In this document: piece by piece, positions 32,807 to 49,378 of the stretch
Layout of the letters: each line of letters opens with the position of its first letter
Position numbering within the stretch: the stretch's first letter is position 1
Source: Candidatus Forterrea multitransposorum CG_2015-17_Forterrea_25_41
GTDB taxonomy: Archaea > Iainarchaeota > Iainarchaeia > Iainarchaeales > CSSED10-239
DNA length: 64,000 bases
Reading direction: 5' to 3'
NCBI GenBank assembly: GCA_009392915.1
Contig: CP045477.1
Coordinates: 192,001-256,000, forward strand
Notes under the pieces: model-generated
The model's database searches: none
What the model was told of the DNA's origin: nothing
The model's input: the letters and a program-made list of their open reading frames with translations, nothing else
Position numbers and translations under genes: made by a program

Positions 32807-32807
32807 A

Positions 32808-32833
32808 TTTTTTTCTTTTTTTCTTTTTTTTTT
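32808..32833 (+). terminator. Oligo-T tract after ppsA (archaeal-type terminator candidate)
   Basis: tttttttctttttttctttttttttt lies directly after the TAG stop. Similar T-tracts follow rbcL (8190-8230), lemA (34042-34070), 38192..39550, and the first giant gene (49379-49400). Confidence 0.4.
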
Positions 32834-33121
32834 ATAATATAAAATTATTTTTTAAAAATAAAAATAACTACTTAATTTTCAATAATTTATCTTTACATAA
32901 TTATTTTTTGATTTGTAAACCATTATTAGAATATGGTTTGAAATACAAAAACATTCTTTTTAAATTATATTTGATTTACTCTATAATTCCTAAAAAAGAC
33001 TTTTTTTAGAAAACCAAATTAGATTGTAAAAGTAACTGTCAAACAGTCATTTTTTTTCTTTACAATTTAATAAAAACAAGTACTTTCAAACTAGTAAGAT
33101 TCATACAGTGGAGGAATAACT

Positions 33122-33367
33122 ATGCCTAGTAAAAGACAGAAAGGAATGGTTTTAATATCCGTAATTGCAACAGCTTTGTTTGTTTTATCAAATATTTTCT
33201 TTATTACTTTAAGTAGTAATGATTTAAAACAAACAGATATAAGCTATCAAGATAGAATTTCACAATATAAGATGCCTTTTTCAACAGCTCCTTATTGTGG
33301 AGATTTAACTTGTAATTATTCTTACGGAGAAAATCCATTAAATTGTCCTCAAGATTGTTATATGTAG
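33122..33367 (+). CDS. Small pilin-like/secreted protein with Cys motif
   Basis: The N-terminus MPSKRQKG/MVLISVIATALFVLSNIFFITL is class III signal-like. The C-terminus is CGDLTCNYSYGENPLNCPQDC. The SD GGAGG lies 7 nt upstream. Confidence 0.5.
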   Translation: MPSKRQKGMVLISVIATALFVLSNIFFITLSSNDLKQTDISYQDRISQYKMPFSTAPYCGDLTCNYSYGENPLNCPQDCYM

Positions 33368-33489
33368 GATGATTTTTCTTTTTCTTTTTTTTTTATTAAA
33401 AACATTTGTTTTTATTCTTTTTTATTCATAATATAATATACTATTTATTTTAATATTAAATAGATTTCACAAAAAAGGGGGAATTAATT

Positions 33490-34041
33490 ATGGCAGTTTG
33501 GTTAATTATTTTGATCATAGTTGGTGTACTTCTTTTAATTGTGTTTGGTATCTATAATAGTTTAATAAGATTAAGAAACAGAGTTAAAAATTCTTGGAGT
33601 CAAATCGATGTTCAATTAAAGAAAAGATTTGATTTAGTTCCAAACTTAATTGAAACTGTTAAAGGATATATGACACATGAAAAAGAGACTTTAACTAAGA
33701 TTACTCAACTAAGATCTCAAGCAATGAGTGCAACTGATATGAGTATGAAAGCAAAAGCTAATAATCAACTTTCAAAAGCTTTATCAGGTTTAAATATTGC
33801 TGTTGAAAGTTATCCTGATTTAAAAGCAAGTCAGAATTTTTTAATGCTTCAAGAAGAACTTTCAGGTATTGAAAATAAAATTGCATATGCAAGACAATTC
33901 TATAATGATTCAGTAATGATTTATAACAATAAAATAGAAATGTTTCCATCAAACATCTTTGCAAGCATGTTTAATTTTAAGAAAGAACAATTTTTCGAAG
34001 CACCAGAAGAAGAAAGAAAGAATGTTAAGGTTTCTTTCTAA
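33490..34041 (+). CDS. lemA: LemA family protein
   Basis: N-terminal TM, then [39 protein letters not shown]...[39 protein letters not shown], the textbook LemA pattern. Confidence 0.92.
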   Translation: [183 protein letters not shown]

Positions 34042-34108
34042 TTCTTTTTTTTCTTTTTTTTTACAAACATATAAATACTTTATTGTGTATATTTATTTAT
34101 AAGATAAA

Positions 34109-34301
34109 GGGGACATGGGGTAGCCAGGTTAACCTTACAGGCTCCAGATATTTTTTAAATTAGAAAGTAATCTGGAACGCAGGATGTTTTTTTTTAAAAA
34201 AAACAGATGATTGATATTATACAGGTTTGTTTAATTTTATATTTATATAAAATTGAAATAGGAGAAACCTGTAGACCCGGGTTCGAATCCCGGTGTCCCC
34301 A
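34109..34301 (+). tRNA. tRNA-Trp (CCA) interrupted by a ~119-nt intron at the canonical 37/38 position
   Basis: The 5' exon is GGGGACA UG GGGU AGCCAGGUUA ACCU U ACAGG CUCCAG(A). The 3' exon is (A) CCUGU AGAC CCGGG UUCGAAU CCCGG UGUCCCC A. The two halves are separated by AT-rich sequence. Confidence 0.85.
34148..34266 (+). other. tRNA-Trp intron (boundaries ambiguous by 1 nt: 34148..34266 or 34149..34267)
   Basis: The exon halves only form an anticodon stem (ACAGG/CCUGU) after this segment is removed. The intron segment aatctgga is complementary to the anticodon-loop region tccagat, as expected for helix formation around a bulge-helix-bulge site. Confidence 0.75.
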
Positions 34302-34340
34302 TATCTTTCTTTTTTTATAAATTTTAAATTTTGATTATAA

Positions 34341-35324
34341 ATGATTTTTAGCTATTCTTCTTTTTTTAGTATTAAGCATGAAGATTTAAAAATAAATTTT
34401 GATCAAAATAAAGCTTGTTCTTTAGATGAATATCTTTTTTTAACACATGCACATACAGATCATGTTTGTAATACTTCTCAAAAGACTTTTGCAACTAAAG
34501 AAACTATTTCTCTTTTAGAGAATAGATATGATAATAATAAATTTAATTTTATAGAACTTGAATATAATAAACCATATTTTCTTAAAGCCGATTTTAAAGT
34601 TACTGCTTTAAATGCTGGACATATTTTAGGCAGTTCAATGTTTTTATTTGAAACTAATGATACATCTTTACTTTACACTGGAGATTTTAACACTAAAGAT
34701 TCTATTCTTTTAAAAGGTGCAAAACCAGTTATTGCAGATTATTTAGTTATTGATTCAACTTTTGGAAGAGAAGAGTTTTATTTTAAAGAAAGAAGTTTAG
34801 TTTATGATGATTTATTAAAAAAAATAAAACAAGATCTTTTTGAAAATAAATTTATAATTCTTGCAGGATATTCTTTAGGTAAAAATCAAGAAATAATTGC
34901 TTTTTTAAATAAATATCTAAATATAACTCCTTTAGTTGATAAAGAAACATATAGGTATTCTAAAATATATAACACCCATAATAATAATTTAAATTTTATT
35001 CTTTTAGATCATAATATTTATTCTTCAAATGTTTTAGTTATGCCTTTATCTTTAATGAATAGAAATTTAATTAAAAGTTTAGAACATCAAATCTATAAAA
35101 AAATATCTCCTTATGTTCTAACAGGTTGGAAATATTCAAGAGGAGCAAATCTTGTAAATGTTTCTGATCATTGTGATTTTAATTCTTTATTAGATTTTAT
35201 AAATGTTGTAAATCCTAAAAAAGTATTTACAATTCATGGTTTTACTAAAGATTTTGCAGATAGTATTAATTATAAGTTAGGAATTGAGGCTCAATGTGTT
35301 TCTTCCTTAAATAAAAAACTTTAA
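34341..35324 (+). CDS. Metallo-beta-lactamase-fold hydrolase (beta-CASP-like nuclease candidate)
   Basis: HxHxDH motif: LTHAHTDHV. Also NAGHILGS, YTGDF, and the late motif VSDHCDFNSLLDFI...VFTIHG, which resembles beta-CASP motif C. Substrate unknown. Confidence 0.7.
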   Translation: MIFSYSSFFSIKHEDLKINFDQNKACSLDEYLFLTHAHTDHVCNTSQKTFATKETISLLENRYDNNKFNFIELEYNKPYFLKADFKVTALNAGHILGSSMFLFETNDTSLLYTGDFNTKDSILLKGAKPVIADYLVIDSTFGREEFYFKERSLVYDDLLKKIKQDLFENKFIILAGYSLGKNQEIIAFLNKYLNITPLVDKETYRYSKIYNTHNNNLNFILLDHNIYSSNVLVMPLSLMNRNLIKSLEHQIYKKISPYVLTGWKYSRGANLVNVSDHCDFNSLLDFINVVNPKKVFTIHGFTKDFADSINYKLGIEAQCVSSLNKKL

Positions 35325-36384: not shown

Positions 36385-36606
36385 ATGGCTAATATGACTT
36401 TAAGTATACCTGATGATCTTTTAAAAGAATTAAAAAAACACTCTTATATTAAATGGAGTGAAGTTGCAAGAATTGCTTTTGAAGAAAAGGTAAGTGCTTT
36501 AGAAAGAATAGATGTTTTTAAAGAATTTCAAGAAGCTGAAAGAGATTTTAAAGATGGAAAAAGTATTTCTTTAGAACAATTAAAAAAGGAACTTGGTAAA
36601 AAATGA
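36385..36606 (+). CDS. Ribbon-helix-helix (CopG-like) small protein
   Basis: MANMTLSIPDDLLKELKKH... is a typical RHH beta-strand plus helix start. Its stop overlaps the next gene's start (ATGA, 36603..36606). Confidence 0.5.
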   Translation: MANMTLSIPDDLLKELKKHSYIKWSEVARIAFEEKVSALERIDVFKEFQEAERDFKDGKSISLEQLKKELGKK

Positions 36607-38191: not shown

Positions 38192-39550
38192 ATGAAGTCA
38201 AAATTTATATTTTTAATATTTTCTTTAGTTTTATTATCTGGATTTATTTTTTCTGCAACTCCTGCAGATCCACCAGTAAGCAATACAGTTTTTAGTGTTG
38301 ATATCGTGCTTCCAAATCCATATTATGGATTAATTGTTGCAGATGCATCTAATCTTGCAAATCCAGATTCTGTTTCAACTCAATCAATACTTAATAATGC
38401 TGTTGTATTAAGTAAGATTGGGGCTAGTAATCCTGGTGCAAACAAATTTTTAAAAATTAATTCTACTGGAAATTCTCTTGAATGGGCAACTGTTGAAGGT
38501 GGTTCTAGTTCAGGAGATGGTGTAGTTTATACTGCAACAAACCCTATAAGTATTTCAAATAATGTTATAAGTTTAAATGATTCTGGAATAACTACTTTAA
38601 AATTAGCAAATAGTGCTGTTACTTCTGATAAATTATCAGAAAATTCAGTTACAACTACTAAATTAAATAATTCTGCAGTAACTAATACTAAAATTGCAGA
38701 TGGTGCAGTTAATAAAGATAAAATTGCAGTTAAATCTGTAGATCATGCAAGACTTGAAGTTTATCCTTTAGATAAATGTCCTGCTAATAATGCAACTATA
38801 ATTTATAGAAATAATAGATTAGAATGGTCAAATTCTATTGAATGTGGATCTGACATGTTTATTACAGGGGATATTTCTTCTACAAGAACACAAACTTATT
38901 ATCCAGCTCCATTTAATCAATGTGTAAAAGATGTAACTCACACTGTATCAGGAACTTCTTGTACAGGTGCATCTTGTCTTGAAGAATGGAGTCTTTTTAG
39001 AAGTGGAGGAAGTAATGCTGTTAATAATACTGTAAACAATATTAATGGTACAAGATCTGTTACTTTTAATGCTTCTGAAAATAATTTATATGCTTCAAGT
39101 TATGATATAAGATATAATTTATCTCAACCATCAACAGGGAAATCTGCAACTAGAATTAGAAATAGTAGTTATAATGGTTTTAATGCAATTTCTAATGAAG
39201 AAAATACTTGTGCTCCAGTAGTTCCAAGTTCTTTAAATGTTTTAAGATTTCCATCTGATGGATGTATTGATTATTTTGAAGTTAAAGCATTAGTTAGTTG
39301 TGTTGGTTCTTGTAATTATGTAATGTATGTAGATAATCTTCCTCATTCAGAAGGTTCATTTACTGGTACTCAAACAATTACTGAGAATGTATATGTTTCA
39401 GACATAATACATAATAATCCTAAAGTGAAATTTAAGATTACAAATACAGGCCCTGCTGGACTTGTAGGTCTTGAAAGAATTACACCTGAGGGTACACTTC
39501 AAATTACACTTCCACAAATGGTTGATGGACTTCTTTGTTCACAAAATTAA
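38192..39550 (+). CDS. Secreted protein with tail-fibre-like short tandem repeats and a Cys-rich C-terminal domain
   Basis: Signal peptide: MKSKFIFLIFSLVLLSGFIFSA. Five consecutive ~10-aa repeats: SGITTLKLANSAVTSDKLSENSVTTTKLNNSAVTNTKIADGAVNKDKIAVKSV. About 12 Cys residues follow downstream. Confidence 0.65.
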   Translation: MKSKFIFLIFSLVLLSGFIFSATPADPPVSNTVFSVDIVLPNPYYGLIVADASNLANPDSVSTQSILNNAVVLSKIGASNPGANKFLKINSTGNSLEWATVEGGSSSGDGVVYTATNPISISNNVISLNDSGITTLKLANSAVTSDKLSENSVTTTKLNNSAVTNTKIADGAVNKDKIAVKSVDHARLEVYPLDKCPANNATIIYRNNRLEWSNSIECGSDMFITGDISSTRTQTYYPAPFNQCVKDVTHTVSGTSCTGASCLEEWSLFRSGGSNAVNNTVNNINGTRSVTFNASENNLYASSYDIRYNLSQPSTGKSATRIRNSSYNGFNAISNEENTCAPVVPSSLNVLRFPSDGCIDYFEVKALVSCVGSCNYVMYVDNLPHSEGSFTGTQTITENVYVSDIIHNNPKVKFKITNTGPAGLVGLERITPEGTLQITLPQMVDGLLCSQN

Positions 39551-39852
39551 GATTAATTTCTTAATTTCTTTTTCTTTTTTTTATTTTTTTTTCTTAATTA
39601 AATACCTTTTTAAATAGTTAGGTGTATATTATATCTAAATAATATATTTATTTTTAAGGTTATTAAGATATAAAAAGATCTAATCTCTTTAATAACAAAT
39701 TTTTATATCTTTTTTAAAAAAATATATTACTTTCATGTAGTTGTTTAAAAACTACATAACTTGGTTTGATTTTCAAACCAAAAAAACTATTTCTTATGGG
39801 AAATTTAAACCGAAGCTCTTTTAATACTTTCATGACATTATCATGATATATT

Positions 39853-40317
39853 ATGACACAAAATGACAATATCACAAAACAGATATTTTTAGAAAAGTTA
39901 TTAAAACAAGATACCAAAGAGCTGGGTTTGAATGATCTTATTCAGATCCAAGAGAAGTTTAACGATCCGTTGATACTTTCTGTAATATTACATCAACTTT
40001 TAGAAGAAAGAAAAAGAACAAACGAGATATTAAAAGATCTTTATGAAAAGTATGACTCTTTACAATTTTCTATTAAGAATAGTAAAGAATCTAGTAATTT
40101 AAATCAAGATCAAGATACAATTAATATCTTACCAGAAATAGATGATAAGATAATTTCTTTTATAAGAGCAAATCAAAAAGTTGATGCAGAACAAGTACAG
40201 GAAGCATTTAATTATAAAGGATCAAATGCAGCTTCTCAAAGACTTAATAGACTAGTAAAAGAAGGATACTTACGAAAAGTTCAAGCAGGAAGAAAGGTAT
40301 ACTTTATTGTAAAATGA
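39853..40317 (+). CDS. Winged-helix DNA-binding protein with N-terminal helical region
   Basis: C-terminal wHTH-like KIISFIRANQKVDAEQVQEAFNYKGSNAASQRLNRLVKEGYLRKVQAGRKVYFIV. It sits immediately upstream of a repeat-rich 540-nt intergenic region. Confidence 0.6.
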   Translation: MTQNDNITKQIFLEKLLKQDTKELGLNDLIQIQEKFNDPLILSVILHQLLEERKRTNEILKDLYEKYDSLQFSIKNSKESSNLNQDQDTINILPEIDDKIISFIRANQKVDAEQVQEAFNYKGSNAASQRLNRLVKEGYLRKVQAGRKVYFIVK

Positions 40318-40483
40318 TTTTTCCCCTTAAAAATCATTTCCTTTAAAAAACCCCTTTAATATAGAAAAACTGTAAAAAACCCCTTTTTTACATTTTTTCA
40401 AAATTTATACCTTTTTTCCTTCTTTTAAAAATAAGTTTTTGTCTTTTATTTTAGTCATTTAATTTCCCTCTAAAAAACTTTAA

Positions 40484-40690
40484 AAAAGATTGTAAGGAAA
40501 ACTTTTTTGTTTCTTTCCTTCTTCTTTTCTGCCCTTTAATTATAAAAATACTTATTAAAAAAAAGATTGTAAGGAAAACTTTTTTGTTTCTTTCCTTCTT
40601 CTTTTCTGCCCTTTATTAAAAAATACTTATTAAAAAAAAGATTGTAAGGAAAACTTTTTTGTTTCTTTCCTTCTTCTTTTCTGCCCTTTA
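40484..40690. repeat. Three tandem direct repeats (period 77/75 nt) with an identical 55-nt core
   Basis: The core aaaagattgtaaggaaaacttttttgtttctttccttcttcttttctgcccttta occurs at 40484, 40561 and 40636. The linkers are attataaaaatacttattaaaa and ttaaaaaatacttattaaaa. The core contains the imperfect inverted repeat AAGGAAA...TTTCCTT. Confidence 0.9.
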
Positions 40691-40857
40691 TTTTTAACTT
40701 AAAAAACTAAAAAAACTATTTTTTTTAATTTTACAACTCTTTTTAAATATTTTGTATATATAGATTTAATACTAATGAAATTGCTTTTTAACCTATTAAG
40801 CAATCAATTTAGCTACATTATAATTTTATATTAAAAAGAAGGAGTTGACTTAAAAAT

Positions 40858-41193
40858 ATGAAACTAGAAAAAATTGGTGCATTTGCTTTTCTTGGTGGTA
40901 TCTTAATTTCAATTATTTTTGGACTTATTTACAATATTAACCATCCAGTATGGCTTTCAACTGTTTTAATTATTTTAGGATTAGTTGTTGGTCTTTTAAA
41001 CATTGAAGATAAAAACATATCTCTTTTCTTAATTGCATCCATTACATTTATTGCAACTAGTAACTCAATAAATGCAATACCTGTTATAGGAGATGTATTA
41101 AGAGGAGTTTTAGTTAATTTAGTATACTTTGTAGCTCCAGCTGCATTAGTAGTTTCAATTGTTGCAATTATTAGAGTTTCAAACTCTAAATAA
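40858..41193 (+). CDS. Small 3-TM membrane protein
   Basis: Good SD (AAGGAG, 40842..40847). Three hydrophobic helices. Preferred over the antisense ORF 40929..41228. Confidence 0.55.
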   Translation: MKLEKIGAFAFLGGILISIIFGLIYNINHPVWLSTVLIILGLVVGLLNIEDKNISLFLIASITFIATSNSINAIPVIGDVLRGVLVNLVYFVAPAALVVSIVAIIRVSNSK

Positions 41194-41362
41194 TTCTTTT
41201 TTTTTCTTTTTTTTAAATAAAAATACATTTTTTATCTATAAATAATGAATATTTAAATATTTCTATTTATAGTATATTTAAAGTATATATAAAAAACTTT
41301 ATATAGTAATAAATATATAATATTTATATAATATTTATAAATTTATAAATAAAGAAATAAAT

Positions 41363-44300
41363 ATGGTTAAAGATAAAAATAATTTAGGCTCAAATGAAAA
41401 CAATGAAAATAAACAAAATATTTTTTCAAGATTTTATAATTATCTTGAAGATAAATATTCTTCTTTATCAAACTGGCTTACAGAAAAAGGAATACCATTA
41501 AATAATTTAAATAATTATTTAGAGGAAAAAGGACTTCCTGCTTTTGCAATAGTTGCATCTATTTTATTATTATTAATCTTTATAATTGTTTTCTTAATTA
41601 TCTTTTCTTTTTCCAGTCAATCAACATTAATTTTTTCTGTTAAAGATTATTCTGGACTTTCAATCAATGATGCTTTTTTAAAAATTACAAATAGTTCAGG
41701 TAAGGAAATCTTTTCAGGAACTGTAAATGATACTGATGTTAAAAAATTAAAATTAAAATTAGGAGAATTATATTCTTTTAAATCAACTAAAGATGGATAT
41801 CCTGATTTTTCAAAATCAATAACTATTACTGATAAAGATCAAAAAGTACAAATTACTTTTTCAGAATCAATTGAGTATGGTATATTAAGAATAAAATTAA
41901 TAGATAGAGATAATAAAGGAATAATTACTTCAGGAACTGCGATCGCAAGATATTCAATTAATAATGCTCCTGAGTCTACAGAAAACATTGTAAATATTGC
42001 AAATGAACATTTTATTACTTTAGAAGTTCCAATGAATAAAGATATTGAACTTTTAGTTAGTGCAGATGGTTATGAAGATTTTAAAGAAACAAATTTTAGA
42101 ATAACTTTAGAAAATCAAGAAAAAGTAATTGAAATGGATATTTCTTCTTTATCTTTTGAAGGTAAAAGTCAAGTTACTTTTGTTGTTTTAGATACAGAAC
42201 AAAATCCAATTGATGGTGCTTTAGTAAGCATATATAATCTTGGAGATGAATTATTAGATTCAAAAAATACAATTGATGGAAGAGCTTTATCTTTTATTGA
42301 TAGTGGTTCTACAATATCTTATAAAGTTGAAAAAGAAGGTTATAGAACATTTGTAAGTGATCCTGAAGTTTCTTTTAGAATTACAAAATCTGAAATAACT
42401 TATAATGTTACTTTAGAAGAGGGTGGAAATTTTTTAGATGTGTTTGTAAAATCTGGTTCTAATTTTTTAGCTCTTGGAGATGTTGCAATTACTGTTTATG
42501 ATTTAAATAATAATATTATTAATTCTGGAAATACAGATGATTTAGGAAATTTAAAATTAACTGGTCTTTCTGATAAAGCACCAATTGTTGTAACTGCTTG
42601 TAAAGAAGATTTCCTTTGTGAAAATTTAACAGTAGATCTTTTAGAAAAAAGTTCAGTTGAGTTTACTTTAGAAAGAATAGATGTAACAAATAGTGCTATT
42701 CTGTCTGTTTTTGTTGTTGATGAAAAAAATTTACCGATCTCAAAAGCTTTTATAAAAATCTATCAATTACTTGAAGATGATAAAGAAGTTCCATACAACA
42801 CATCTCTTCAAACTGATCTTACAGGTTCTCTTTCAATACCTCTAAGAGTTGGAGATTCTTTTATAGTTTATTCATTAGTTGGAGAAGTTCAATATTTTGA
42901 AGAAATTACAATTGATGCTTTAAGAGAAAATAAAATAATTTTTGTAATGGATAATGCTTCTAAAATAATTAAATTAGATCTTTATGATGAAAATGGTTTT
43001 AAACTTACTTCAGGTTCTTTACTTGTAAAAACAAAAGATGGAACTGTTCTTTTTGATGGTAATTTATCTGAAACTGATCAAATAAGTTTTATTTCAGAAG
43101 GCTATAAAGATTTATATGCTGAATACACAGATGTTAATGGTAATAAATCTTCAATTAATTTTAATGCTGATGAATCTGAGTCAGATGGATATATAAGACT
43201 TGATTTTAATAAAGAAGTTAATTTAACAGATTATCCTGTAATTGAGTTTTCAGGAATTGTAGATTCTAAAGGAGTTAAATCAAATTTTGTAACAATAGGT
43301 AAAGAATATTATTTAATTTTTGATGTTTTATTCCCAGAAAATACTTATAAAGGACAAGTACATATTAGAGCTGGTGATGATACTCAAGTTGATGTTGAAG
43401 AAATGAGTTATGGTATAACTGGTTTTTCTGCAATGGATATTTATGATTTTAAATATGGTACAACATATAATAGTTCTCCTCTTCCAGGTTTAATGAATAT
43501 TGATCTTTTAAATGAAGGTTCTTCTCAAGTTTTAAATAAATGGCTTGAACTTAAATGGAATAGTGATCTTCCTTTAGGTAATAAACAAATCAAAGTAAAA
43601 ATAAATGTTATAGATGATTCTTATTCAAAATTAACTTTTAAATATAGAACTTTATTTGAAGAAAATAAATTATACTATAGAGATCCAGTTGACTCTTTAT
43701 TAAACCAAAGTTATTCTTCATCTCAAAAAGGTGCTTTATATGCAGATACAAAAGAAGTAAATATTGATGTTTATAATGTTCCTTTAGATTGTGAAGGTTC
43801 TCAATGTTTGTCATATACTTTTATTGATTCAAAAGGAAATGAATTTTCAAAAAATGATTTCTATGCTGTAAGAGATGAAACTTATTTTTTAAAAGTTAGT
43901 CTTTATTCTTTAGATAATAAACAATTAGATCTTTTAGCAGAAACTTCAAAAAGTTTCCCTTTAATTTCATTTGGTTCTTTTTCAGATAATCTTTATCAAA
44001 ATGAAATAATAAATGATAATTCTTTATTTGAAATTTCAAGAGATGGTTTTTTACTTTCTGAAAATTCTTTAAAAAATATTTATCTTTCATTTATCTCAAA
44101 AGATATTGGTGCTGCATATATTGATCTTAAAGCAACAGATGTTATTTTAGGAAATGAAATTTTAAACAATAGATTAAGTTTTAATGTTTATGATAAAAAA
44201 GAAATGAATGTTTTAGTTTCTCCAAGTAATTATGTTGATTATGGATCAAATTTTACTGTTGATGTTTTAGATTCAGTTTCTCTTGAACCTATTACAGATG

Positions 44301-47300
44301 CTTTTATTTCTTTTTATGATGTTAGAGATACTTTTATTTCTTCTTTAAAACCAAGTAATTCAAATGGAAGGAATGGAAAATATACTATTACAAATAATTT
44401 TAATACTTCAACTGTTAAAATGGTAGTTGAAAGATATGGTTATCTTCCTTATGAAACTGAAATTTATATTATTGATAATACTTTATTAAATGCAATTCCT
44501 TCAGAAATAATTTTTAATTTAGGTCTTGACCAAACAGCATCAACTTCAAATTTTAGTTTAGAAAACTTAGGTAATTATCAAGCAACAAATGTAAGGTTTG
44601 GAGAACCTATTTGGATTGAAGGTAGTGCTGGTATTTATCTTGAAGGAAGAGGTAATCCAATAATTAATAAAAACTCAACTCAAAATTATCAATTGTTACT
44701 TACAACAGAAAATGATGTTGAACTTAAAACAGCATATGCACATCTTCCAGTATATGCATCTGTAGGTCCTAGAGAAGTTACAAAAATATTAAATGTTAGA
44801 ATAAATAAAGGTTTAATGTTAAATGAATGTGTTGAAATTACTCCTTCTGAAGTTTCTTCTTTTGTTGGACTAAATGTTTCTTCAAATTATGCAGATCCTT
44901 TTAATACTCCTTTTGCAGATTATGATTATACTTCAAATACTTCAAATAATCCTATGCTTGCACCTTCTCAAAGTTATTCTAATTATGAAGAATATTTAAA
45001 TTCAAGTGGATATAACATTACTGATTCAACAGATAATGGTTATACTTACACAGATTCTAAAAATTATACTTATCATGCAACTTCTCCTGCTCTTAATTCT
45101 CAAATTACTGAAAACACAACTTATTTTACAATTAAAAATAATTGTTCTCAAGCTATAACTTTTAATCCTCAAGCAGTTTTAACTTCTTCATCATCAAATA
45201 ATAATTTAGAAGTTTCTCTTGCAAACATAACTGTTCTTCCAGGAGAAGAAAAAGTTTATGATGTTATTTTAAAAAATTCATCTGAACTTAAAAGAAAAAC
45301 AACATATACCTATAATGTTTTATGGCATAATAATTATTATTCAATAGCTCCTTCAGTTTTAAATGTTGATCTTTTAGATTTAAGTAGAGCTTTATGGGTT
45401 ATGCCACAACAAATAAATATTCCAATCTCTCAAGTACATCCTCAACAAGCTGCTGAAAATTATACTAGATTTTTTATTAAAAATATAGGTGCTGTTCCAA
45501 TAACTGATATACAAATAAGTCAGTATCCAAAAATGGTGTCTTCTAATATTAAAATAACTGAATATCCAAGACAAGTATCTGTTTTAGAACCAGGAAAAAC
45601 AATTCCTGTTGATTTAAAATTTTCAGTAAATATTAATAAATCTACATTAGATAATGCCTTTATACAAGTAACTGGTAAAGCTGTTGGTATTAGTGAACCA
45701 ATTACTTCAACAACACAATTAGTGTTTTCAATTTCTTCTCCAAATTGCTTAAAAGTAAGTAATAAAAATATTAATTTTGATTTAGAAGTTGGGGAAACAA
45801 GAGCAAGAAATATTACAATTACAAATCAATGTTCTGAACCTGTTACAATAGTTGGAATTGATAAAAAACAACAAGGATATTATCAAGCATATGGGGATAA
45901 TTCTTTTAGAATAACTCCTGCTTCTGGTAATCCAATAATTCCTGTTAACATGTCAAATTCTTATAGAATAGAGTTTACTGCAAATTCTTTAGGTGGTTCT
46001 CCAAAAACACCAATGATACTTCAAGGTAGATTAATGAATTCAGGTAATCCTGTAACTTCAGAAGAGGTTTTAGTTTCAATAACTATAGATGATATAATGG
46101 TTGGAGAAGAAGCTGAAAGAAATATTTCTATTTTATCTTCTCTTCCTTCTTGTGAAGATCCACAAAATATTAATTCATATAATAGACCATTAATTTCAAT
46201 TAAAGATTGTTCTGAAACTTCAGGATATTGTGATGGAGAATCTTCAGCTGAATTAATTTTAAAAAAAGTAAATGAACTTCAAAATGAAATTAAACAATTT
46301 TCTGCACAAACACAATCAAAAGTAATTGATACTGGTTGTACTCTTCAAGATGCATATAGTGGTTTTTGTAAAATATCTGAACTTGGTGGAGGAATTGATC
46401 CTGTTGAGTTTTCTTTCTTTATGCAAAATGATAATGTTACACCTGATTTAATTAAATCTATTTTAACAAAATCAAATTATTCTTTTAAAAATTATTTTGT
46501 TGAAACAAATATTTTTAATAAAGAAATTAAAACTATAAATCAATATTCTTCTTATGGGGTATATGCTGGTGGAAATAAAATATTTGTATCTCCTCACCTA
46601 TCAGGTTGTGGAAAATATACAGTAGAGATTGATGGTTATGTTGCTGCAAGTCCAGATTATATTTATCCTGAAAGAGCATATTATTATATTAATGTTGTAG
46701 AAAAAGATACTAACACTATTCATTGTGAGAAAAATATTGTAAATTATTTAAATTATCTTCCATGGGATCTTTCTTTTAATAAAAACCAAAGAGCAGGAAC
46801 TTGGCTTACTTTATTTACTGGTGATGAAAATTTATCAAAAGCTTTAATTAAAAGTGTGGGTAAGTTTAAGTCAGATGAAATTGATTTAAGATATGTTTAT
46901 AATAAAGATGTTTTATCTACAAGAAATAGTACTTTAAATGTTTCAACTGGAGAGATTTCTGAAAATAAAGAAGCTCTTGCAAAAATTTCTTTTAATGATA
47001 CTTCTTTAAGAAAAAGCTCTTCTCCAGAACAAATAGATATTACTTTAAATTCTCTTTATAATTCTCCTGAAGGTAAAACTTCTGAGTATGCTGTTAAAGA
47101 TTTTTCAAAAGTAATTTCTTCAATGATTTCAGATAATGATTATTCTGCAAAAGTTTGTATTTCTGAAGATAAAACATATATGCTTGTTTTAGATGTTATT
47201 TCAGCAGGAGATTTAACTTTTGTTGATAAAGAAGTAAGTCTTCCTTTAAAGGATGGAGCTTCATGTTCTTTATTAAAAGTTAAATCATCAGTTCCTGAAA

Positions 47301-49378
47301 CTTTAAAGATTACTTCTGATTCTTTAGAGTTTGCAAATATTGGTTTTAAGAAAAATAAAGATGATACTCTTCAAGAGTCATTAGATATTAGTGTTATTGC
47401 AAATAAAGATTCTAACTTTTATATGTGTGTAACTCCAAATTCAGAGACTGCTATCTCAAGTCTTGTTGATAAAAAAATAACTGTAACAGCAACAAGTATT
47501 TATTCTGCAAGTGGTAGTATTGGAAATAGAAGCACAACTTCAGAAGTAGCTTTCTCTTCATGTGCAATCACACCTGAAGATTATCTTTTAGGTATTTATT
47601 CAAATATTTTAACTGAAAATAATAAAGCTGAAGATGATAGAATCTTACCTCAAAATTATACAGCTATTGTAGATTGGGATAAACAATATAATCCTGAAGA
47701 AAAAGAAAAATTATGTTCAACTTTACAAAAGATTGTAAATAGTAAAAAGTATAATGGAGAACTTTTCTTTGATTATGAAGTTTTAGGTTGTGAGATTGAA
47801 GATTCTTCACAAGAAAGAGATTCAAGAATAAGTAAAGGATTACATAATGCTGGACAATATTTCTTTTCTTGTTCAGGAGCTTGTGGACTTTGTTATGGTC
47901 TTTCAGGACTTATAATGCCTACACAATTTGTAGGTGCAATTGTTGATTGTTTAGGTTTCTCTTGTTTATTACCTTCATTAAATATATTTGCATCAAATCT
48001 ATCTAATGGAGAAGGTGGAATATCTTGGCTTTTAGATGAATTTTTTGGATTATTATTAAATGATGATGTTAGTTTCTTTTCAAATATTACAAGTGAGATT
48101 GAAACATGGGTAAGTGGTGTTTTAGGTGTTGGAGGAGCTGCAACAAGTGGAGCTTTAAAAGCTAATGCTGCTTCTGCTGCTGTACCTTTAGATCAAGTTA
48201 CTCAAGACTTAGTTTCACAATCTAGTTATGATCCTACAACACAACAAATATTAGATGATTTAGCAAATCCATCAACAACACCTGCTCCTGTAAATCCATC
48301 AACAACTTCTGGTGTAATTAATGGTTCTACTGAATTAAAAAATTTAAATAGTCAATTAAATAATTTAAATAGATATTTAAGTGGTAATGACAATATTAAA
48401 TTACAAACATTTTCAAACCCACAAGAAGCAGGTAGATTTAGTGATATCCTTAGAAAAATGAATCAAACATCTGGATCTAACTTTGATAAATTGAGATCTT
48501 TATCTACTCAAGAGTTTGATGATTTTGTAAATATTCTTGAAAAACAAAATTTTACAGGTAAAAATAGTCATTTATTCAAAAAAGACTTACTTATTAAAAG
48601 ATTAAAAGATGCTAAAGTAAATGATTTCAAATCAGTTTCAGCTGCAACTTCTTCAAGTGCAGCAGCTACATCTAGTAGTGCAGCTTCAGTTGCTGATGAT
48701 TTCTATGATTACCCTAAAGCAGATTATGATCAAGCAATTAAAAATTTTGATAATGATATTAAAATGCTTGATGATTCAATAAGTAATCTTGAAAATCAAA
48801 AAGCAGCAATTGAAACTAATGCAAAAAGATCATCTGCAAATCCTAAAAAAGCACTTCGTTATAAATCAAAAGTTGATGCTCAAATAAAAGCAATAGATAG
48901 TCAACTTGATGAACTTAAAAAAAGTAAAGATGCTCTTTCAAGTGTTAAATCTAAATTTGCTTCAGCTAAAAATGTAAATGGTACTTATAAAGTTCCAACT
49001 TCTGCAATTGATGATTTATCAAATAATATTCCAAAACAAGCAAAACTTAGCAAATTATCTAAATTTGCAAAAATTAAAGGTGTTGCAAAAAGCTTTGGAA
49101 GAGGCCTTCTTTGTGGTGCTACAGGAAATGCTGCAGGAATATATTCTTTAAAAGAAGAAGGTAAAACAGGACTTAATAAATCAATAGAGTTTTTAAGTAA
49201 AAATGATTTTGAGAAAAATATATTCTATGTTTCAGAAGTTGATATGTTATCTCCAGAAAATGATCAAGAATACGAAACAAGATATACAATTAATATAAAA
49301 CCTTATATCTCTCAAGATCAAAGTATTATTTCTTCAATTCCTACAAAAAGAATTGATTCTTGTACTATAGAAGAATAA
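41363..49378 (+). CDS. Giant surface protein A (2671 aa): N-terminal cytoplasmic motif + TM anchor, CarboxypepD_reg/PEGA-like beta-sandwich array, Cys-rich hydrophobic hairpin and coiled-coil C-terminal region
   Basis: An uninterrupted 8016-nt ORF. N-terminus: FSRFYNYLEDKYSSLSNWLTEKGIPLNNLNNYLEEKGLPAFAIVASILLLLIFIIVFLIIF. At least 6 repeats end in ..K(D/E)GY..F.. (KDGYPDFSKSITI, ADGYEDFKETNFRI, KEGYRTFVSDPEV, RYGYLPYETEIYI). Later IKNNCSQAITF and TNQCSEPVTIVGI sandwich starts. C-terminal FFSCSGACGLCYGLSGLIM...FVGAIVDCLGFSCLLPSL, followed by heptad-like segments. Confidence 0.9.
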   Translation: MVKDKNNLGSNENNENKQNIFSRFYNYLEDKYSSLSNWLTEKGIPLNNLNNYLEEKGLPAFAIVASILLLLIFIIVFLIIFSFSSQSTLIFSVKDYSGLSINDAFLKITNSSGKEIFSGTVNDTDVKKLKLKLGELYSFKSTKDGYPDFSKSITITDKDQKVQITFSESIEYGILRIKLIDRDNKGIITSGTAIARYSINNAPESTENIVNIANEHFITLEVPMNKDIELLVSADGYEDFKETNFRITLENQEKVIEMDISSLSFEGKSQVTFVVLDTEQNPIDGALVSIYNLGDELLDSKNTIDGRALSFIDSGSTISYKVEKEGYRTFVSDPEVSFRITKSEITYNVTLEEGGNFLDVFVKSGSNFLALGDVAITVYDLNNNIINSGNTDDLGNLKLTGLSDKAPIVVTACKEDFLCENLTVDLLEKSSVEFTLERIDVTNSAILSVFVVDEKNLPISKAFIKIYQLLEDDKEVPYNTSLQTDLTGSLSIPLRVGDSFIVYSLVGEVQYFEEITIDALRENKIIFVMDNASKIIKLDLYDENGFKLTSGSLLVKTKDGTVLFDGNLSETDQISFISEGYKDLYAEYTDVNGNKSSINFNADESESDGYIRLDFNKEVNLTDYPVIEFSGIVDSKGVKSNFVTIGKEYYLIFDVLFPENTYKGQVHIRAGDDTQVDVEEMSYGITGFSAMDIYDFKYGTTYNSSPLPGLMNIDLLNEGSSQVLNKWLELKWNSDLPLGNKQIKVKINVIDDSYSKLTFKYRTLFEENKLYYRDPVDSLLNQSYSSSQKGALYADTKEVNIDVYNVPLDCEGSQCLSYTFIDSKGNEFSKNDFYAVRDETYFLKVSLYSLDNKQLDLLAETSKSFPLISFGSFSDNLYQNEIINDNSLFEISRDGFLLSENSLKNIYLSFISKDIGAAYIDLKATDVILGNEILNNRLSFNVYDKKEMNVLVSPSNYVDYGSNFTVDVLDSVSLEPITDAFISFYDVRDTFISSLKPSNSNGRNGKYTITNNFNTSTVKMVVERYGYLPYETEIYIIDNTLLNAIPSEIIFNLGLDQTASTSNFSLENLGNYQATNVRFGEPIWIEGSAGIYLEGRGNPIINKNSTQNYQLLLTTENDVELKTAYAHLPVYASVGPREVTKILNVRINKGLMLNECVEITPSEVSSFVGLNVSSNYADPFNTPFADYDYTSNTSNNPMLAPSQSYSNYEEYLNSSGYNITDSTDNGYTYTDSKNYTYHATSPALNSQITENTTYFTIKNNCSQAITFNPQAVLTSSSSNNNLEVSLANITVLPGEEKVYDVILKNSSELKRKTTYTYNVLWHNNYYSIAPSVLNVDLLDLSRALWVMPQQINIPISQVHPQQAAENYTRFFIKNIGAVPITDIQISQYPKMVSSNIKITEYPRQVSVLEPGKTIPVDLKFSVNINKSTLDNAFIQVTGKAVGISEPITSTTQLVFSISSPNCLKVSNKNINFDLEVGETRARNITITNQCSEPVTIVGIDKKQQGYYQAYGDNSFRITPASGNPIIPVNMSNSYRIEFTANSLGGSPKTPMILQGRLMNSGNPVTSEEVLVSITIDDIMVGEEAERNISILSSLPSCEDPQNINSYNRPLISIKDCSETSGYCDGESSAELILKKVNELQNEIKQFSAQTQSKVIDTGCTLQDAYSGFCKISELGGGIDPVEFSFFMQNDNVTPDLIKSILTKSNYSFKNYFVETNIFNKEIKTINQYSSYGVYAGGNKIFVSPHLSGCGKYTVEIDGYVAASPDYIYPERAYYYINVVEKDTNTIHCEKNIVNYLNYLPWDLSFNKNQRAGTWLTLFTGDENLSKALIKSVGKFKSDEIDLRYVYNKDVLSTRNSTLNVSTGEISENKEALAKISFNDTSLRKSSSPEQIDITLNSLYNSPEGKTSEYAVKDFSKVISSMISDNDYSAKVCISEDKTYMLVLDVISAGDLTFVDKEVSLPLKDGASCSLLKVKSSVPETLKITSDSLEFANIGFKKNKDDTLQESLDISVIANKDSNFYMCVTPNSETAISSLVDKKITVTATSIYSASGSIGNRSTTSEVAFSSCAITPEDYLLGIYSNILTENNKAEDDRILPQNYTAIVDWDKQYNPEEKEKLCSTLQKIVNSKKYNGELFFDYEVLGCEIEDSSQERDSRISKGLHNAGQYFFSCSGACGLCYGLSGLIMPTQFVGAIVDCLGFSCLLPSLNIFASNLSNGEGGISWLLDEFFGLLLNDDVSFFSNITSEIETWVSGVLGVGGAATSGALKANAASAAVPLDQVTQDLVSQSSYDPTTQQILDDLANPSTTPAPVNPSTTSGVINGSTELKNLNSQLNNLNRYLSGNDNIKLQTFSNPQEAGRFSDILRKMNQTSGSNFDKLRSLSTQEFDDFVNILEKQNFTGKNSHLFKKDLLIKRLKDAKVNDFKSVSAATSSSAAATSSSAASVADDFYDYPKADYDQAIKNFDNDIKMLDDSISNLENQKAAIETNAKRSSANPKKALRYKSKVDAQIKAIDSQLDELKKSKDALSSVKSKFASAKNVNGTYKVPTSAIDDLSNNIPKQAKLSKLSKFAKIKGVAKSFGRGLLCGATGNAAGIYSLKEEGKTGLNKSIEFLSKNDFEKNIFYVSEVDMLSPENDQEYETRYTINIKPYISQDQSIISSIPTKRIDSCTIEE

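Follow-up and report, generated by a model that had tools for sequence, protein, structure and literature searches.

A tandemly triplicated hairpin module in the probable 3'-end region of a winged-helix gene of Iainarchaeota

Directly downstream of a winged helix-turn-helix (wHTH) gene in Candidatus Forterrea multitransposorum, whose relatives carry the names Candidatus Iainarchaeum and Diapherotrites, lies an array of three tandem copies of a unit of about 76 nucleotides. The question raised by this locus is what the array is and to which of its neighbors it belongs. It was studied in a stretch of 64,000 nucleotides (64 kb, called the window here, with all coordinates counted from its first nucleotide), which is about 25% GC and encodes NurA, XPD, a PEP synthase, LemA, and giant proteins with CarboxypepD_reg and Ig-like domains. 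The array very probably arose by amplification of one module from a structured element that is conserved in Iainarchaeota (DPANN) at the 3' end of the wHTH transcription unit. This element probably acts as a sense-strand RNA, and on balance the array is best described as the triplicated distal module within a structured 3' untranslated region (UTR) and terminator region of that unit.

Tandem Repeats Finder reports a single array at 40482-40697, with a period of 75, 2.8 copies, 95% matches, and a score of 404. A 51-nucleotide core (GATTG...CTGCCCTTTA) has exact matches at 40488, 40565, and 40640, where shuffled sequences predict 0. With the preceding A6 added, the identical core is 57 nucleotides (40482-40538, 40559-40615, and 40634-40690), and the periods are 77 and 75. 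The three perfect tandem repeats described in the initial annotation are therefore borne out, its 55-nucleotide core sitting inside the 57-nucleotide one, and the hairpin AAGGAAA-N13-TTTCCTT and polypyrimidine run ttccttcttcttttctgccc that it reported for each unit were both found as stated. The linkers, 20 and 18 nucleotides long, are nearly identical, as it had also noted, but differ by two 1-nucleotide indels rather than one 2-nucleotide indel. Three further details are revised here. The TATA-like ATTATAAAAATA (40539-40550) is present in one of the two linkers and lies 9-20 nucleotides before the next core, not 25-30. The intergenic region that holds the array is 540 nucleotides long and is not the largest, as 32807-33489 spans 683 nucleotides (100-amino-acid cut-off for open reading frames, ORFs). 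The array does follow the wHTH gene, but a gene of 111 amino acids intervenes between it and the first giant gene (41363-49378). One U6 and one U4 tract lie in every unit; only copy 3 is in turn followed by a U-tract of at least four nucleotides. A CRISPR array was rejected, since the linkers are one sequence save for the two indels and hence there are no unique spacers.

The array is present in nine independent assemblies, all at least 97% identical, with three copies in eight and two copies in one. The three-copy assemblies fall into two sequence variants. The window and two others (L007 and L087; loci of relatives are labeled L with a number) have a spacing of 77/75, while in five (L008, L065, L088, L089, and L090, whose identity to the window is about 97.4% where compared) the spacing is 78/77 and the loop of the middle copy has T changed to A. 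This change, seen in L008, L065, and L006, is the sole single-nucleotide difference within the array and is located in the hairpin loop. The two-copy assembly, L006, is 97.2% identical to the window and could be a short-read collapse. The 89% relative L010 has one copy of the unit. Because the copies are identical though the strains differ by about 2.6%, and because there are two or three copies within about 97% average nucleotide identity (ANI) and a single copy at 89%, the array appears from these sequences to be a recent, strain-variable triplication of one stem-loop module, in agreement with the recent amplification proposed earlier. The lineage-specific increase would have run from one to two to three copies, probably by slippage or unequal recombination, and the triplication itself may be selectively neutral.

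These data also bear on whether assembly error created the array, or whether it is a low-complexity expansion that carries no meaning and has no conserved equivalent. Repeats of 77 bp can be miscounted in short-read assembly, the contig of L009 ends inside copy 1, and one metagenome-assembled genome (MAG) has two copies; the sequence is purine/pyrimidine-rich and slippage-prone, and nearby A-rich spacers vary in length between relatives. Against this, eight assemblies from several projects agree on three copies in two sequence variants, so that the copy number is not a one-off artefact, and all AT-rich relatives have a conserved single-copy homolog of the unit (described below). An artefact is thus hardly credible. 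The initial annotation had also named a dispersed element resembling a miniature inverted-repeat transposable element (MITE) as the case that would speak against its own reading. The window has only the three tandem copies, with no further match to the 51-nucleotide core when up to three mismatches are allowed. The 20-mer TTCCTTCTTCTTTTCTGCCC, searched in a collection of 185,579 genomes, matches two related archaeal MAGs, in both at the syntenic locus, and otherwise only four Firmicutes sites, uninspected and presumably due to chance; it has no match in viral contigs. A MITE or dispersed repeat was rejected, there being no copies at unrelated loci beyond the presumed-chance Firmicutes matches.

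What the unit is becomes clearer from its single-copy counterparts. A total of 80 loci encoding a protein of the wHTH family were retrieved, and subsets of 68, 71, and 77 loci were used in individual tests. About 70 non-identical relatives (35-100% protein identity) have the element behind the wHTH gene regardless of what lies beyond it, and the next gene may encode the 111-amino-acid membrane protein, a Cys-rich protein of 123 amino acids, a pilin-like protein, ribosomal protein L10e, HicAB, a Bro-like protein, or a HerA-like ATPase. Throughout the AT-rich clade (51-100% identity), the box CTTCTTTTCTGCC is always directly 3' of the wHTH gene and on the same strand. A box of A followed by at least four C is found within 100 nucleotides after the wHTH stop in 62 of the 77 loci, compared with 3.9% of background windows. 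Exact matches to ACCCCCACC lie 7-46 nucleotides after the wHTH stop in 23 out of 25 cases; the remaining two are one coding-region site in L068 and L069 and were set aside as chance. The link between the array and the wHTH gene that was first drawn from their adjacency is thereby strengthened, the motif being invariably just 3' of the gene and on its strand.

The element of the AT-rich clade can be divided into a proximal module A (...AAAAUAUACCUUUCUUCCUUCUUCUUUUCUGCC) and a distal module B, composed of a purine arm, a loop, a pyrimidine box, an unpaired CUGCC, and a U-tract. By sequence, the repeat unit of the window corresponds to module B. The module B hairpin has 13-19 bp; its outer stem AAAAGAA/UUCUUUU is conserved in every AT-rich relative with CUGCC unpaired, and its inner stems differ by lineage (AAGGAAAAC, AGAAGGA, GAAAGGA, GAAGG, and AAGGUG). 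Its folding z-score is -2.5 to -4.5 in 7 out of 10 loci. In the relatives, the last CUGCC always has a U4-U7 tract 2-8 nucleotides behind it, and L022 to L028 carry single modules, as L010 carries one unit. Because its purine arm GAAGGUGUAAUUG resembles the coding end GAAGGUAUAUUUUAUUG, a birth of module B by duplication of the terminal hairpin is suggested.

The proximal part of the element is a predicted sense-strand RNA hairpin that encloses the stop codon; it is sense-biased and absent from Rfam. Its 5' arm is the end of the wHTH coding sequence and its 3' arm is module A (Table 1). For 40282-40317 against 40390-40425, RNAduplex gives a dG of -25.8 and a z-score of -4.2. Its apical part in the window can be read as three smaller hairpins (HP1 to HP3, 40312-40399), each built of an A-run, a CCCC run in the loop, and a U-run, and their C-runs (one at 40323) are the only three non-tRNA intergenic C4 runs on the sense strand near genes in the 64 kb. 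HP2 is absent from the predicted minimum free energy (MFE) and centroid folds; in L010 (UAUAAAA-ACCCC-UUUUAUA) its arms have changed but still pair. CUGCC has been lost behind module A in the lineage of the window and is kept there in relatives. Across the AT-rich clade, the last ~30 coding nucleotides (GCAGGAAGAAAGGUAUAYUUU..., encoding A-G-R-K-V-Y-F) pair with module A with a dG of -17 to -26 and z-scores of -1.9 to -4.7. When the pairs are tabulated by codon, coding positions 6-20 are paired in 16 of the 16 AT-rich loci, and compensatory changes are present at coding positions 3, 9, and 15 (example, AAG:UAUACC and AAA:UAUACU). The G.U pairs of the core stem (positions 6-16) have the G on the coding side. 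The ungapped 11-bp core has 91.7% of cells paired in register, compared with 42-68% when it is slid. A TATA box within module A was rejected, as the TATA-like sequence there is the complement of the GUAUAYUUU (Val-Tyr-Phe) codons and thus part of the stem.

The GC-richer relatives have the same architecture built from other sequences. Group 2 has a hairpin of 60-80 nucleotides beginning 0-5 nucleotides after the stop, with unrelated stems and the invariant loop ACCCCCACC(UC); the sense z-score is at most -2 in 11 of 12 loci, and the antisense is weaker. The partner of the coding end in group 1 is Box 1 (CCUUUGCCAAAUAAAUUUCCUCCCC), with CUCCCAACCCCCA in the loop and a free Box 2 downstream. The GC-richer relatives share the loop motif AACCCCCACCUC on entirely different stems. 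Coding potential of the conserved box was rejected: the periods of 77 and 75 are not multiples of three, the offset of the motif from the stop takes all three frames in group 2, and the spacer indels are not multiples of three.

Folding statistics agree with this picture. The 155-nucleotide segment from -45 to +110 around the wHTH stop has a median z-score of -4.3. Over 71 loci, which are phylogenetically non-independent, the median z-score is -3.23 for the sense and -1.13 for the antisense strand, with the sense lower in 66 out of 71 (p = 4e-12). Among 37 genes of the window, the wHTH stop region is an extreme outlier with a z-score of -8.35, the next gene having -4.55. That outlier status, together with the confinement of C-loop hairpins to this site, led to the rejection of an ordinary terminator style of this genome. 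In Rfam 15, the window matches are four tRNAs only, with nothing better than E = 0.95 in 40200-41400, and the loci of 20 relatives give nothing below E = 0.1.

The layout suggests how the element may work. Its first part would be a long sense hairpin with the coding end as the 5' arm, the stop codon inside, unpaired C-rich apical motifs, and a pyrimidine 3' arm. Its second part would be one or more spare pyrimidine tracts, each folded on its own purine arm into a 13-19-bp hairpin and followed by an unpaired (U/C)UGCC, with a U-tract behind the last spare copy, and together the two parts would form the structured 3' UTR of the wHTH mRNA and its terminator zone. Transcription would pass the internal units, which have no second U-tract, and stop once the last unit has been read. 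Protection or definition of the mRNA 3' end would fall to the hairpins, and the single-stranded C-rich and CUGCC motifs would be offered to a trans-acting partner. Tripling of the module would add U-tracts and CUGCC sites. We infer sense transcription of the array as well as the roles in termination or stability and in partner binding. Runs of at least six T are found at 12 per kb in intergenic and 1.5 per kb in coding sense strands (8-fold), and the tracts expected of a U-tract terminator are present as U6 and U4 in each unit and U5 after the last copy. In M. maripaludis, termination efficacy and aCPSF1 binding rise with the number of U4-tracts, and no hairpin is needed (PMC8716108). Termination or stability as the main role of the element is plausible, and is put forward tentatively.

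Several observations weigh against a sense-strand 3'-end RNA with this role. The hairpin of the window's own unit is marginal (z-scores of -1.5 and -1.1), and the repeat-unit hairpin folds equally on both strands (mean z-score of -2.9 sense and -2.6 antisense), so that folding energies favor neither strand of the unit. Formal covariation in the AT-rich core is modest, since the coding arm shows little variation: a single pair is changed on both sides, and 27 of 500 shuffles score at least as high. Four attempts with MAFFT and RNAalifold did not recover the structures, and a mixed seed gave little, since the stems share no sequence or are of low complexity; the structural case rests on the per-locus folding statistics, the codon-anchored table, and the cross-clade comparison. 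The U6 in the loop of each unit and the two U6 in HP3 might stop the polymerase before the array. A plain terminator role leaves the invariant CUGCC, and the conserved loops, unexplained. The spare boxes pair with the coding end no better than composition-matched shuffles, and as rival 3' arms for the coding end they were rejected (z-scores of +0.9 to -2.3, compared with -1.5 to -5.0 for the proximal box). There is also no sign that the element co-evolves with the ribosome binding site (RBS) of the downstream gene.

A wider role is conceivable but unlikely, in which the element is a phylum-wide riboregulatory domain with a C-loop resembling an anti-Shine-Dalgarno (anti-SD) sequence and amplifiable hairpin-CUGCC modules, acting beyond termination. 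It would then be a 3'-UTR-derived small RNA (sRNA) or sponge that titrates Shine-Dalgarno (SD) sequences or an RNA-binding protein, or else an autoregulatory site in the mRNA of the regulator itself, and module number would tune dosage at the strain level. The C-loops and CUUCUUUUCUGCC are the candidate target-pairing motifs of the element. The element as a whole is a credible candidate for a previously undescribed RNA motif.

In another reading, each unit is an sRNA gene, or a promoter and terminator unit, on either strand. In the antisense version the minus strand reads a TATA-like TTTTTATAAT, GGGCAG, a purine-rich hairpin stretch, and a U8 tail with no internal U-run, and its hairpin folds as well as the sense one; in the sense version the RNA starts after the linker box, and L010 has the exact box TTTTAAATA just before its single unit. 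The spacing is wrong for the minus strand, where the box ends 5 nucleotides before GGGCAG and local promoters start about 21-24 nucleotides after the box, which means that the conserved GGCAG would fall outside the transcript. On the plus strand the box is in one linker only. Promoter-like matches in the region number 13, with 14.2 in shuffles, as A/T-rich boxes are everywhere at 25% GC; single-copy relatives have no consistent box, and Rfam has no matching family. This reading is accordingly considered improbable. The earlier suggestion of repeated promoters is not supported, the TATA-like box being in one linker only, mis-spaced, and unlike the boxes of the clade (TTTTTAAATA and TTTTAATA).

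The wHTH protein itself invites another explanation, in which the units are direct-repeat sites on double-stranded DNA that it binds to nucleate a higher-order complex, in the manner of the centromere-binding protein AspA, or to insulate or regulate downstream genes. Searches for its family gave 54 close relatives and, at 50% identity, 213 clusters (E<=1e-10), from which the family appears to be lineage-restricted; the identical protein is found in 118 blocks of the assembly collection, one of them a 663-kb contig. An AlphaFold2 model (pLDDT 73) has an N-terminal coiled-coil-like helix and a C-terminal winged helix, and Pfam and NCBIfam give only sub-threshold HTH matches. The winged helix is of a DNA-binding type, with the archaeal centromere-binding protein AspA as the best structural match in the PDB by Foldseek (E 2.6e-4, target-normalised TM 0.58), followed by ArsR/SmtB and MarR. 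Direct repeats of the conserved box are family-wide, as two boxes in group 1 and modules A and B in the AT-rich clade. RNA folding leaves the invariant CUGCC/UUUGCC unexplained and favors neither strand of the unit.

Other evidence points away from DNA sites. All of the structural matches, that to AspA included, are weak and generic. A far better operator candidate lies upstream of the gene, where two palindromic TCATGA half-sites 5 nucleotides apart (TCATGA-N5-TCATGA) stand between the TTTTAATA box and the wHTH start. The consensus there, TCATGACAT(T/A)ATCATGATATA, is nearly invariant in all AT-rich relatives (51-100% protein identity) and shares no sequence with the array. Judged by sequence, it is a better candidate site than the array for the wHTH protein and likely an autoregulatory operator, whereas binding of the array by the protein, as DNA or RNA, finds no positive support in these comparisons. 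The arms of the inverted repeat vary while pairing stays, which suits a hairpin over a protein site, and the proximal box belongs to a sense-strand RNA stem with G.U pairs. Close relatives have one unit. No Orc1/Cdc6, Rep, ParA, cas, or defense genes were found near the array (Pfam, NCBIfam, and PADLOC on ORFs of at least 100 amino acids, 24600-63900). Between about 26 kb and 64 kb the cumulative GC skew climbs almost steadily, dipping slightly in the 40-42 kb bin but not reversing at 40.5 kb; in archaea this measure is not a reliable indicator. Binding sites on DNA are thus quite unlikely. The iteron array bound by the wHTH protein, as first proposed, does not fit the single unit in relatives, the lack of Rep or Orc1/Cdc6 within 15 kb, or the unswitched skew, and a replication origin or iteron was rejected for want of an initiator gene, a GC-skew reversal, and multiple copies in relatives. 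The wHTH mRNA itself is probably leaderless, since no SD precedes the ATG.

Downstream, the array might be the 5' regulatory region of the 111-amino-acid gene and the giant genes, either as an activating platform or through anti-SD pairing with the RBS of the former. The order of wHTH gene, element, 111-amino-acid gene, and giant ORF is conserved in the AT-rich clade (51-100% identity), and the motifs complement local SDs (GGUGA, GAGGU, and GGGGG), as UUUUCUGCCC with GGGCAGAAAA in L012 and GUCAACCCCC with GGGGGUUGAC in L027. The element is, however, also present with unrelated downstream genes and in clades lacking giant genes, observations that equally count against the regulatory platform for giant genes in the initial annotation. 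Moreover, the 111-amino-acid gene owns a conserved promoter-like box, TTTTTAAATA, downstream of the array. The same box precedes the orthologous gene in L012, L021, L027, and L028 and unrelated next genes in L015 and L016, and we infer from its position that it marks the 3' limit of the element. Cognate element-RBS pairs are not better than non-cognate ones (ranks 5, 4, 5, 1, 3, 2, and 3 of 7), and specific anti-SD pairing with this RBS was rejected on that comparison. A 5' regulatory role is very unlikely as a result. No 13-mer complement lies elsewhere in the window when up to two mismatches are allowed. The 111-amino-acid protein has no match in PADLOC, Pfam, or NCBIfam.

Two observations concern this downstream region. 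In L012 (identical to L005), the RBS region GGGGGCAGAAAAAAATG of the 111-amino-acid gene (4835-4855) holds GGGCAGAAAA, a 10-nucleotide exact complement of the box UUUUCUGCCC about 230 nucleotides upstream; it is lacking in other lineages and may be chance. Directly before the first giant gene, 41264-41363 is dense in short A/T tandem repeats (periods 8-19), and the contig of L007 ends there, suggesting an assembly-breaking repeat.

Amplification at the 3' side of the wHTH gene is not confined to the window. Tandem repeats with a period of at least 20 start within 500 nucleotides after the wHTH stop in 9 of 68 loci, compared with 0.023 per 500 nucleotides elsewhere. Independent perfect arrays lie downstream of the 3' element in L046 (532-728, 52 nucleotides x 3.8) and L048 (784-939, 63 nucleotides x 2.5), in distant GC-richer relatives. 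Their units are purine-rich, contain AAAAGAAA, and are unrelated to that of the window. The position may be mutationally prone to amplification, or else repeated modules may be of use there. In L010, a different perfect tandem repeat, TTTACTTTATAGCTA, of about six copies runs from 1180 to 1327, after the element and up to the contig end.

Table 1. Features at the wHTH gene and its 3' array, in window coordinates
Feature	Positions	Strand	Description
Putative promoter and operator-like region of the wHTH gene	39819-39852	+	TTTTAATA box at 39819-39826, then TCATGACATTATCATGATATATT at 39830-39852 up to the ATG
wHTH gene, 154 amino acids	39853-40317	+	ORF; N-terminal helices, long helix at residues 39-81, C-terminal winged helix at 95-153
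5' arm of terminal hairpin	40282-40317	+	Last 36 coding nucleotides with stop, CAAGCAGGAAGAAAGGTATACTTTATTGTAAAATGA; codons Q-A-G-R-K-V-Y-F-I-V-K-stop
HP1	40312-40339	+	11-bp A/U stem holding the TGA stop, loop CCCCUU; centroid fold; conserved in L010
HP2	40343-40362	+	Weakest of the three hairpins; CCCC loop (40351-40354); read from sequence
HP3	40364-40399	+	GAAAAACUGUAAAAAA-CCCC-UUUUUUACAUUUUUUC; CCCC tetraloop, two U6 tracts; MFE and centroid folds; conserved in L010 and L012
Module A, 3' arm of terminal hairpin	40404-40426	+	TTTATACCTTTTTTCCTTCTTTT; pairs with coding positions 2-20
Repeat copy 1 (77 nucleotides)	40482-40558	+	Hairpin 40484-40528, unpaired CTGCCC 40529-40534, linker
Repeat copy 2 (75 nucleotides)	40559-40633	+	Hairpin 40561-40605, CTGCCC 40606-40611, linker
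Repeat copy 3	40634-40699	+	Hairpin 40636-40680, CTGCCC 40681-40686, then TTTATTTTT (U5 at 40691-40695)
Promoter-like box of the 111-amino-acid gene	40740-40749	+	TTTTTAAATA, downstream of the array; putative promoter
111-amino-acid predicted membrane protein	40858-41193	+	SD GAAGGAG; membrane location predicted from hydrophobic sequence; usual, not obligatory neighbor

Upstream of the wHTH gene, a conserved hairpin (GGTTTGAttttCAAACC, 39770-39795) followed by an A-run lies about 60-85 nucleotides before the start codon. Its arms differ yet still pair in L017, L018, and L020 (GGTTTGaaaaCCAAAC), and it may serve either to terminate the upstream gene or in the control of the wHTH gene. Adjacent to the wHTH gene, a 452-amino-acid ORF (38192-39550) with a GGGGG-type SD has no Pfam, NCBIfam, or PADLOC match. 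This is the most divergent stretch between the ~97% strains, with no megablast match in L008 and 91% in L006, and it looks like a fast-evolving gene. A 73-amino-acid ORF at 36385-36606, whose stop overlaps the start of NurA, has a weak match to VapB/RelB-like antitoxins (E 2e-4, which misses the curated cut-off). Judged by its N-terminal motif, the next gene behind the element in group-2 loci seems to encode a HerA-type ATPase; in the window, NurA is three genes upstream. In L068 (2998-3789), which represents a GC-rich lineage, the wHTH gene directly follows Alba-like and possibly KH-domain (NusA-like) genes, as read from ORF translations only. The intergenic region 34041-34341 has unusual C/G runs (GAATCCCGGTGTCCCC on the plus strand; CCCC at 34109 and 34117 on the minus strand) and no Rfam match at the gathering score, and could be an unannotated structured RNA.

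The DPANN archaea have tiny genomes and are either uncultured or difficult to grow; to our knowledge, almost nothing is known of how they regulate genes at the RNA level. Here, an isolated repeat becomes a defined candidate RNA motif with about 70 non-identical examples, a clear anatomy, and natural variation in module number. Its genetic partner is constant: a lineage-restricted winged-helix regulator whose operator-like box is strikingly conserved.

The locus resembles several known systems in part. Like the ToxI RNA of type III toxin-antitoxin systems, it has tandem near-identical non-coding units directly before a small gene; here, that gene encodes a 111-amino-acid membrane protein, the repeat belongs to the 3' element of the upstream gene, and relatives have one copy. 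A type III toxin-antitoxin or defense system was rejected, as PADLOC, Pfam, and NCBIfam give no toxin or defense match. With intergenic variable-number tandem repeats, it shares perfect units and a copy number that differs between strains of about 97% ANI, but its unit is a conserved structured module, and unrelated lineages have amplified other units at this same position. With the AspA sites of pNOB8 and with iterons, it shares direct repeats beside a small winged-helix gene whose product has AspA as its best structural match. The repeats here are 3' of the gene and single in relatives, their arms vary with pairing kept, and there is no ParA, ParB, or initiator.

Small RNAs with C-rich loops or derived from 3' UTRs include RsaE/RoxS and RNAIII of Firmicutes, and sRNA41 of Methanosarcina targets RBSs. 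The element likewise has unpaired C-rich loop motifs at an mRNA 3' end, complementary here to the SDs GGGGG and GGUGA, and the loop of the GC-rich relatives contains CACCUCC, the core of the 16S rRNA anti-SD, which lends the element a generic anti-SD-like character. It differs in having no Rfam match and no co-evolution with a neighboring RBS, and it may never be released as a separate RNA.

Transcription terminators offer a further likeness. The element shares with archaeal U-tract (aCPSF1/FttA-dependent) and bacterial intrinsic terminators its place at the 3' end of a unit and its hairpins followed by serial tracts of at least four U; a generic terminator scan found nothing in it, since its stems are A/U-only. 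In archaeal terminators a hairpin is dispensable and the sequence is not conserved, whereas here a loop motif and CUGCC are kept across 35-100% protein identity, the 5' arm is inside the coding sequence, and the wHTH gene is an outlier among 37 genes. If the element were only an elaborate terminator, it would still be an unusual archaeal 3' end, hairpin-based and conserved in sequence, where U-tracts alone are thought to be enough.

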